Below are positions 20,842-21,090 of a DNA stretch of 64,000 nucleotides, one piece after another (within the stretch, counting starts at the first letter, position 1; each line of letters begins with the position of its first letter). The translations under genes were made by a program, and so were the position numbers. Origin of the DNA: Escherichia phage fEgEco12; sequence record PP777464.1; one strand, 5' to 3'. The notes beneath the pieces are model-generated. The model was not told the DNA's origin. It ran no database searches and saw only the letters and a list, made by a program, of their open reading frames with translations.

Positions 20842-20871
20842 TGCGTAAAAGGATTTAGTACTGAATCATAA

Positions 20872-20932
20872 AAAAGTCAAGGCATTTTTAAACTTCAGCG
20901 TTAAAAAAATGCATAGGTAATCCCTTGACTTT
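20872..20932. promoter_or_regulatory. Long-loop inverted repeat at the compositional boundary
   Basis: AAAAGTCAAGG ... CCTTGACTTTT, 11-bp arms about 40 nt apart. Confidence 0.4.
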
Positions 20933-21032
20933 TATGAATAAAAAGGGATTGGACTATGGCAAAATGCGTAGGGGGCTAAAGGGCGGGTAACCTTAGCGAC
21001 TTCGATAAAGGGGTATTACTTATAAAATGTTA

Positions 21033-21061
21033 TTGACTTTTTATATGAATCGTATATTATT
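21033..21061 (+). promoter_or_regulatory. Putative promoter for the paralog array
   Basis: TTGACT, 17 nt, ATTATT or TATATT. Confidence 0.4.
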
Positions 21062-21090
21062 GGATTGATATTATTTTTAATGGAGTCCCT

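Follow-up and report, generated by a model that had tools for sequence, protein, structure and literature searches.

The composition and codon step near 21 kb in Escherichia phage fEgEco12 coincides with the inner end of its long direct terminal repeat

Long terminal repeats filled with small genes have been described in several phages. The direct terminal repeat (DTR) of T5, 10.2 kb in length, is full of small, mostly uncharacterised genes, and all three gene classes of this phage are transcribed by the host sigma-70 polymerase (PMC7472727). In SPO1, 24 small genes fill most of the terminal redundancy of 13.2 kb, and what they encode shuts off replication, transcription and division in the host (PMC10531801). 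Repeats of about 20-22 kb have been published for the Rak2-like jumbo phages fEgEco12, vB_Ec-M-J, G17, Sharanji, CBB and fENko-Kae01 (Kae01 below), based on PhageTerm, read depth, restriction digests or pulsed-field gel electrophoresis (PFGE); they are the same object as the one treated here. We analysed a stretch of 64,000 nucleotides of fEgEco12 (record PP777464.1, one strand; called the window, with position 1 as its first letter). An earlier note on this DNA had pointed out a sharp discontinuity in composition and codon usage at the start of a gene array, within the interval 20842-21090. This discontinuity is almost certainly the junction of the 20,993-bp left DTR with the unique DNA of an Asteriusvirus, that is, a Rak2-like jumbo coliphage. 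The features on both sides of the junction are listed here, a slash marking the cut.

1..20993, plus strand: complete left DTR, 38.5% G+C, with about 50 small plus-strand genes and 37 strong sigma-70-type promoters
20857..20997, plus strand: conserved non-coding right-end element with the blocks AAATGCATAGGTAATCCCTTGACTTTT, TTGGACTATG and CTAAAGGGCGGGTAACCT/TAGC
20866..20937, no strand: inverted repeat with a long loop (TCATAAAAAAGTCAAGGCATT ... AATCCCTTGACTTTTATGA), part of the end element
20985..20997, plus strand: invariant 13-mer GGGTAACCT/TAGC with the physical right terminus, cut after 20993
21033..21060, plus strand: first promoter of the unique region, TTGACT-16-TATTAT, 40 nt right of the cut, followed by GGAG at 21082-21085 and ATG at 21091
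21091..27280, plus strand: tandem array of overlapping small genes (65-94 aa), 27 paralogues of phrog_4148 with the motif LGTNYQE

The repeat itself is already published. The fEgEco12 paper describes a genome of 374,733 bp with 35.8% G+C and a DTR of 20,993 bp, which was found by PhageTerm and confirmed by restriction digests. This length equals the boundary that we mapped exactly, and the ends of the repeat are by this published mapping experimentally determined physical termini. The window is 99.4% identical to Escherichia phage EC.P1 and also matches about 40 other Asteriusvirus jumbo phages of 350 kb (the 121Q/PBECO4/G17 group). Two of these relatives hold both copies of the repeat in their records and show the same segment at both ends of the genome. 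The DTR of vB_Ec-M-J is annotated at 1-21525, and when aligned its end falls on window position 20993 (…GGGCGGGTAACCT/TAGCGAC); the right copy at 357049-378573 aligns to window 1..20993, running from window base 1 to the last base of the record. G17 was deposited in reverse orientation, so that the first base of its record corresponds by homology to 20993, and the repeat of 20,668 bp comes to its end at window position 1. For G17 a repeat of about 20 kb has been described from coverage, and for Sharanji a DTR of 20,668 bp was determined by PhageTerm (PMC11895373). The cut is also homologous to that of other family members, with CT/TAGC and the element upstream of it aligning with CBB, Kae01 and Erwinia phage Kaldavass. 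Since 20993 is the inner end of the left repeat, it is also the point where the other end of the packaged DNA stops.

A maximum-likelihood search placed the best single G+C change point of the window at 21013, with a 2-log-unit support interval of 20794-21054. At this position the G+C content drops from 38.5% on its left to 32.6% on its right (log-likelihood gain 108), and a comparison of the two sides in 500-bp blocks gave a highly significant difference (Mann-Whitney p = 3e-14; permutation p <= 1e-5). Codon and spacing statistics were calculated for a simple set of non-overlapping open reading frames, divided into repeat, array and rest of the window, and are given in this order. CTG makes up 27%, 8% and 8% of the leucine codons and GGC 28%, 10% and 7% of the glycine codons, while CGT accounts for 40%, 19% and 31% and AGA for 10%, 42% and 35% of the arginine codons, and ATA for 10%, 36% and 26% of the isoleucine codons. 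ACT and ACA exchange their rank between the repeat and the DNA to its right. The codon adaptation index (CAI), for which 27 E. coli K-12 ribosomal-protein, rpoA and tufA genes served as reference, has medians of 0.445, 0.269 and 0.321 (p about 1e-10). Thus, the G+C and CAI comparison that the earlier note had asked for yields a significant step, located at 20993-21013 and not at about 20.9 kb as had been estimated. CTG, CGT, GGC, AGA and ATA differ in the direction described there, but TTA, which had been counted among the codons of the right side, is nearly equal on both sides (33% in the repeat, 36-41% to its right).

The step is not purely a G+C effect, because codon shifts that leave the G+C content unchanged lean towards the ribosomal-protein codons of E. 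coli. ACT is favoured over ACA (odds ratio 4.3), CGT over CGA (3.3) and ATT over ATA (2.1); these shifts between T- and A-ending codons reach clear significance in the case of Thr, Arg and Ile, whereas that for Ala (GCT over GCA) is weaker and that for Gly is not significant. The G+C content is also raised outside the third codon position, with values at positions 1, 2 and 3 of 0.495, 0.340 and 0.379 in the repeat versus 0.41, 0.26-0.28 and 0.30-0.33 on the right side, and in non-coding DNA (36.0% versus 32.0%).

It is the repeat, and not the array, that is the compositional odd one in the genome. The CAI of the repeat, 0.447, compares with 0.27-0.37 in five other sampled stretches of Asteriusvirus genomes, which included replication genes, the tRNA region and the far side of the repeat; in these stretches CTG reaches 3-11% and GGC 6-11%, compared with 27% and 28% in the repeat. 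In G17 the repeat has 38.4% G+C versus 34.5% in the unique DNA on its other side, and the change point lies at most 0.4 kb from the end of the repeat.

Gene spacing and promoters change at the same place. Genes on the left are separated by a median of +81 nt; in the array the median is -10 nt and all junctions overlap, in agreement with the claim that the downstream DNA has almost no intergenic space. Perfect promoters of the type TTGACA-16/17-TATAAT number 13 in the window, 12 of them left of 20993 and one to its right. A slightly relaxed pattern gave 37 sites on the left, where shuffled sequences predict 0.5, versus four in the 43 kb on the right (1.4 expected), so that promoters are indeed few downstream. 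The right block consists of long overlapping gene runs with roughly one good promoter per 5 kb; besides the promoter at 21033-21060, further matches in 11 of 12 positions lie in larger intergenic gaps at 28520, 33612 and 38180. All promoter sites of the repeat lie on the coding strand. The earlier note had assigned an own promoter to each gene on the left; the promoters are dense, but strong sites number about 37, fewer than the genes (about 50).

Within the interval 20842-21090, the tail of the last DTR gene is followed by an end element of about 130 nt that extends to the cut and by a unique leader of about 100 nt with a promoter and a ribosome-binding site. The end element contains a AGTACTGA word, the inverted repeat, the blocks AAATGCATAGGTAATCCCTTGACTTTT and TTGGACTATG, a G-rich stretch and the 13-mer GGGTAACCT/TAGC. 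This 13-mer is unchanged in eight Asteriusviruses, including JNE01 and Turkey5, whose surrounding sequence has diverged, and the record ends of vB_Ec-M-J and G17 fall in it. A search of IMG/VR with the terminal 20-mer gave no match. The long-loop inverted repeat noted earlier is present, with core arms at 20872-20886 and 20919-20933 that are 93% complementary, and extends to 20866-20937. The lone promoter is present as well; it is kept in most Asteriusviruses and ends 30 nt upstream of the first array gene. The AGTACTGA word was considered as a signal specific for the end and dropped, as it has 101 copies in the window (2.4 expected), 60 inside and 41 outside the repeat, and forms part of the promoter spacer: many copies are the spacer end CAGTACTG just 5' of TATAAT (examples at 99, 341, 524, 550 and 20857).

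The same architecture was found in other Rak2-like lineages, for which the values of the repeat are given against those of the flanking DNA.

CBB (Pectobacterium, Mimasvirus): repeat of 22,456 bp (read depth and PFGE); G+C 37.8% against 34.6%; change point 23085, repeat end 22456; 21 promoters against 1
Kae01 (Klebsiella): repeat of 19,736 bp (PhageTerm); G+C 37.3% against 33.6% and 33.3% in the two flanks; change point 19577, repeat end 19736; 24 promoters against 1
fHe-Yen9-04 (Yersinia, Eneladusvirus): no annotated repeat, cut predicted at 13508; G+C 35.6% against 29.9%; change point 13366; 8 promoters against 0

In all three phages the CAI and the shares of CTG, GGC and ATC are higher on the repeat side, and the change points lie 0.2-0.6 kb from the repeat end or the predicted cut. 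The 122-kb siphovirus T5, taken as an outgroup, has a weak G+C step (40.0% versus 37.8%) with a change point at 5304 that is not aligned with the end of its repeat. The 150 nt around the repeat end of CBB match unannotated DNA in fHe-Yen9-03 and fHe-Yen9-04, Serratia phage BF, seven Erwinia pEa_SNUABM phages and GAP32, and the same query also matches the Xanthomonas phages XbC2 and XaC1, EJP2 and Erwinia phage Kaldavass. Most of these matches stop 4-5 nt beyond the cut, and the Kaldavass record begins exactly at it. Determined termini of at least three independent lineages (Asteriusvirus, CBB, Kae01) hence lie on a homologous CT/TAGC, as does the terminus of the Kaldavass record. We take as shown the site at which the repeat ends, all sequence statistics and the fact that these are conserved across four lineages. 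In deposited genomes that have no annotated repeat, the end element was observed 9-25 kb from the start of the record, namely in fHe-Yen9-04 (13508), GAP32 (about 24853), XbC2 and EJP2. The true right terminus of these genomes can therefore be predicted, and their records probably start within an unreported repeat or close to its left end.

We compared the junctions at both ends of the repeat, in each case on the strand that has its 3' end outside the repeat; the bases that directly precede the break are as follows.

Asteriusvirus: left CCACTA/, right TCGCTA/
CBB: left CCGCTA/, right TCGCTA/
Kae01: left CCGCTA/, right TGGCTA/

RCTA/ thus stands at the outer 3' ends of six of the six junctions examined, in inverted orientation. 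The left-end features common to Asteriusvirus and CBB come from junctions compared by eye; a BLAST comparison of the two left ends returned only short words of the AGTACT type.

Inside the repeat, the genes are small, all on the plus strand and mostly unrelated to one another. A stereotyped cassette of about 90 nt stands ahead of about 20-40 of them. It consists, in this order, of an A-tract, AGTAC-TTGCAA or TTGACA, a spacer often ending in CAGTACTG (a TG-extended -10), TATAAT, GTTTTACATC, a GGGGAGAA…TTCTCCCC hairpin, a Shine-Dalgarno sequence and ATG. As far as can be judged from the sequence, the genes of the repeat block form short or monocistronic units, and every unit has its near-consensus sigma-70 promoter, its 5' hairpin and its ribosome-binding site. 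The different expression regime proposed earlier is supported at this level, with short promoted units on one side of the boundary and long overlapping runs on the other.

The cassettes resemble the promoter-early stem-loop (PeSL) cassettes of T4-type phages, which are likewise repeated units of about 50-90 nt with an AT-rich tract, a consensus sigma-70 promoter and a GGGG…CCCC stem-loop (PMC2839356). Both accompany small orphan genes in plastic regions, and alignment gaps between relatives show differences in gene content inside the repeat. A consensus sigma-70 promoter with an AT-rich tract was found throughout the cassette families D1-D7, but not a stem-loop that terminates upstream transcription. 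The PeSL stem-loop has this terminating function and appears 5' of the AT-rich tract, whereas the hairpin in fEgEco12 lies between the transcription start and the ribosome-binding site. Being 3' of the -10 and 5' of the Shine-Dalgarno sequence, it is part of the transcript's own 5' leader. In E. coli, hairpins at the 5' terminus shield mRNAs from RNase E, and the cassette hairpins may stabilise the mRNA. Unlike PeSLs, the cassettes described here are confined to the terminal repeat.

Several proteins of the DTR carry domains of the type expected for host takeover, namely a DksA/TraR zinc finger, a GNAT acetyltransferase and a ParE-like toxin, in addition to DUF7249 and a sub-threshold kinase match. 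A putative kinase is annotated at a similar place in the repeat of Kae01. The corresponding genes, together with the last features inside the repeat, are listed below.

11479-11736, 11800-12156, 15303-15557 and 16104-16745: DTR genes with a DksA/TraR zinc finger, a GNAT domain, a ParE-like domain and a weak protein-kinase match
20080..20107, plus strand: last promoter cassette inside the repeat, TTGCAT-16-TATAAT (cassette families D1 and D5)
20632..20841, plus strand: last repeat gene, 69 aa, phrog_17833, annotated in all relatives examined

In its design the repeat is like the terminal redundancy of SPO1, which holds the host-takeover module of that phage. Both combine many small genes with strong host-type promoters, with 37 sites found here against 0.5 expected. 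The work of Stewart and colleagues from 1998 reportedly arranged the SPO1 takeover genes in many short operons with strong early promoters. SPO1 differs in having a Gram-positive host and hydroxymethyluracil DNA, and it shares no sequence relationship with fEgEco12; we know of no report of a compositional or codon step in SPO1. The host-like codons and the DksA/TraR, GNAT and ParE-like domains and the weak kinase match give indirect hints that the genes of the repeat may be expressed first and that their products may shut off host functions.

The design also matches the left repeat of T5, the first-step-transfer DNA with its pre-early genes. The T5 record shows promoters in the repeat and an 'injection stop signal' near the inner end of the repeat, and T5, too, has its tRNA genes outside the repeat. 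We saw no sequence similarity to T5, although no search was aimed at it. The T5 repeat genes run in both directions, whereas all those of fEgEco12 point towards the unique DNA. The conserved non-coding element of fEgEco12 sits at the inner end of the repeat, in a position comparable to that of the T5 stop signal. To our knowledge, a two-step DNA transfer is not known for Rak2-like phages.

The codons that the repeat avoids correspond in part to the tRNAs of this phage group. Our window contains no tRNA genes, but the close relative Sharanji encodes seven tRNAs (Thr-UGU, Arg-UCU, Gly-UCC, Ser-UGA, Ser-ACU, Asn-GUU and a CAU tRNA). ACA, AGA and GGA, which are rare in the repeat and common elsewhere, are all read by tRNAs of this set, and ATA would be a fourth if the CAU tRNA is an isoleucine tRNA. 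We infer from this correlation that the genes of the repeat are written for translation before any phage tRNA exists.

To the right of the junction, the first 30 kb of unique DNA consist largely of two expanded gene families. The array protein at 21091..27280 is predicted to form a three-helix bundle (AlphaFold, pLDDT 97). This model has no match in the PDB at E <= 0.001, and the array proteins have no match in Pfam and match only families of unknown function in PHROGs. A second family, also of 27 paralogues (104-212 aa; phrog_9317, 12674, 28549 and others), occupies 27270-52833. Salmonella phage SD-15_S21 is 96.5-97.5% identical to fEgEco12 across the repeat (14212-21012), 80-86% across the array (21088-26388) and 92-98% beyond 26.4 kb, so that its divergence breaks at 21012/21088; in G17 the drop in identity lies 1.3 kb inside the array. 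An apparent lack of the repeat side in Salmonella phages was rejected as an artefact of joined matches, as this side is 96.5-97.5% identical. The roughly 100 nt right of the cut appear as a hot spot of rearrangement. SD-15_S21 lacks window positions 21013-21087, including the promoter, and PBECO4 carries an insertion of 366 nt with a gene of 121 aa between promoter and array; BF17 is probably similar, since its match is split in the same way.

Taken together, we read the boundary as the end of the DTR, the DTR as an immediate-early module for host takeover and the unique DNA as a region of long polycistronic units, and give this joint reading a probability of about 0.8. The DTR would run on the machinery of the uninfected cell alone, by means of near-consensus sigma-70 promoters, hairpins in the 5' leader and host-like codons, similar to those found in strongly expressed E. 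coli genes, with AGA, ATA, ACA and GGA avoided. AT-rich codons characterise the unique DNA, and at least three of the four avoided codons (ACA, AGA and GGA) match phage-encoded tRNAs; its transcription would proceed along long operons and in part by read-through out of the repeat. The promoter and codon features make it fairly probable, with somewhat less assurance than we have in the joint reading, that the repeat is an immediate-early module needing host machinery alone.

As to how the ends are generated, the RCTA/ junctions provide a lead. They suggest that the ends may be cut by staggered nicks at inverted RCTA/ sites on opposite strands. A single repeat copy in the concatemer would be nicked on opposite strands at its two ends and then duplicated by strand-displacement synthesis. 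Duplication of a nicked repeat by strand displacement has been proposed for T7-type phages. If this model is true, mutation of GGGTAACCTTAGC would abolish or shift the packaging ends.

Several points weigh against the reading proposed here. The window carries a single copy of the repeat, and its duplication rests on relatives and the literature. The term immediate-early is inferred from promoter and codon features, and the array may be early too, by read-through from the repeat, because a sigma-70-like promoter of its own precedes it and the boundary showed no intrinsic terminator. The tRNA set comes from the relative Sharanji, and its CAU tRNA may be a methionine tRNA instead of an isoleucine tRNA reading AUA. 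The amino-acid composition, too, differs between the two blocks. Codon selection alone is insufficient for the step, since the first two codon positions and the non-coding DNA are likewise richer in G+C. Finally, RCTA/ comprises only 4 nt and the junctions of the different genera are related by descent, which gives their agreement modest statistical weight.

The raised G+C content at all three codon positions and in non-coding DNA would fit a neutral origin of the composition. If the repeat recombines in each cycle, by circularisation or in concatemers, GC-biased repair might raise its G+C content and the codon shift would be a by-product; the edges of the G+C island, sharp at both ends of the repeat, agree with this idea. 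It does not account for the GC-neutral shifts to ribosomal-protein codons (ACT/ACA, CGT/CGA and ATT/ATA), the G-rich hairpins of the cassettes supply part of the non-coding G+C, and T5, which also has long recombining repeats, shows only its weak and unaligned step. We consider this explanation unlikely, but recombination-linked G+C enrichment may contribute. The different origin suggested in the earlier note, with array or repeat acquired horizontally from a phage of other composition and not yet converged, would be in line with the much faster divergence of the array seen in SD-15_S21 and with the clustering of indels right of the cut (the deletion in the SD phage and the 366-nt gene insertion in PBECO4). 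Patchy presence, as expected of a genomic island of foreign composition, was not found: each of the 35 or more Asteriusvirus records has both blocks in synteny, so that the array is missing in none of the records found, and no mobility genes lie beside the boundary. The layout of two blocks with a step recurs in Mimasvirus CBB, the Kae01 cluster and Eneladusvirus, and an arrangement common to four lineages is therefore ancient. A foreign origin of either block is very unlikely.

The scarcity of near-consensus sigma-70 sites right of the boundary (the four relaxed matches in 43 kb) could also mean that the array lacks host promoters because a phage RNA polymerase transcribes it, as the earlier note had put forward. 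We give this hardly any weight, in view of the ordinary, conserved sigma-70-type promoter ahead of the array, the 11-of-12 matches further downstream and the fact that no polymerase gene was seen in the window. The Sharanji paper moreover describes the phage group as using host RNA polymerase together with a phage sigma factor (PMC11895373). Likewise, the inverted repeat at 20866-20937 could be a functional boundary, a terminator or attenuator that insulates the repeat from the array. Its stem lies between an A-tract and a T-tract directly 3' of the last DTR gene, and as RNA it folds somewhat better than shuffled sequences (z = -1.86; 8 of 200 shuffles as good). The terminator scan called no intrinsic plus-strand terminator in 20842-21090, and the AT-rich stem with its 32-nt loop differs from the short GC-rich stem and small loop that precede the T-run of such a terminator. 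There are no compensatory changes in the arms, which are invariant in six Asteriusviruses and gone in JNE01 and Turkey5, and the TTGACTTTT motifs are direct and not inverted repeats in other genera. In the SD phages, the array must be reached by read-through, since the downstream promoter is lacking. An insulating role of the inverted repeat is thus quite unlikely.

Some further observations concern the internal structure of the repeat. Promoters of the form TTGCAA-16-TATAAT (10 copies) lie in its left half, at window 2123-9620, and 11 of the 12 copies of TTGACA-16/17-TATAAT in its right half, at 10055-19211. This spatial split suggests local duplication of cassettes or two regulatory classes. 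An element of 90-140 nt occurs in four copies (9476-9615, 13476-13568, 16745-16882 and 19497-19589) and places a TTGACT-17-TATTAT promoter within a perfect 12-bp hairpin (AAAGGGATTGACTCCGGTCAGTCCCTTT), followed by CCCAyAGGGTGC, with no gene directly 3'. These elements are possibly small RNA genes or terminator-promoter units, and a degenerate copy (AAAAAGGGATTGGACT) is found within the end element. An Rfam search of window 1-28000 returned no known RNA family, neither for the hairpin-embedded promoter elements nor for the inverted repeat. At the other end, the first 1.7 kb of the repeat (window 1-1690) have no convincing gene and are dense in short repeats, among them a periodic array of about 14 units of the 8-bp sequence A[CT]GGCT[AG][AG] at 795-915. 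CBB has GGCTA at 8-nt spacing at 753-801, at equal distance from its left end. The 8-bp array could be a packaging-recognition site or a replication origin.

In the literature that we searched, we found no report that the repeat end coincides with a step in composition, codons and promoter density, and none of the match to the tRNA set or of the cross-genus end element. The papers on fEgEco12, Sharanji, JP4 and Kae01 make no mention of promoters, and the CBB paper, in its accessible text, notes only three RpoD-like promoters on the repeat. The accessible text of the literature on these five phages does not link the repeat end to such a step, and it contains neither a match to the phage tRNA set nor a cross-genus end element or cut-site motif. 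A jumbo-phage review of 2026 and the JP4 paper contain nothing on terminal repeats or promoters in this group.

With the end element and the step in G+C, CAI and promoter density, the true physical ends of Rak2-like genomes can be placed from sequence alone. Most such genomes have been deposited with an arbitrary start and without the repeat, for example 121Q, PBECO4, GAP32 and fHe-Yen9-04, and the 8.3-kb repeat published for UE-S1 has already been doubted. The invariant GGGTAACCT/TAGC is a concrete target for studying how packaging generates repeats of 20 kb. As a more far-reaching and doubtful picture, the Rak2-like terminal repeat might be a self-contained 'boot sector', adapted to the uninfected cell by sigma-70 consensus promoters, stabilising hairpins and codons independent of phage tRNAs, with a conserved end element as its border and genome ends made by staggered nicks at RCTA/; the element might then be the stop or hand-off point of a T5-like two-step entry in a myovirus. 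Our data single out the about 50 small orphan genes of the repeat as the likeliest host-takeover factors of a 350-kb phage. Moreover, codon usage may be partitioned within one genome by the time at which the phage's own tRNAs become available.

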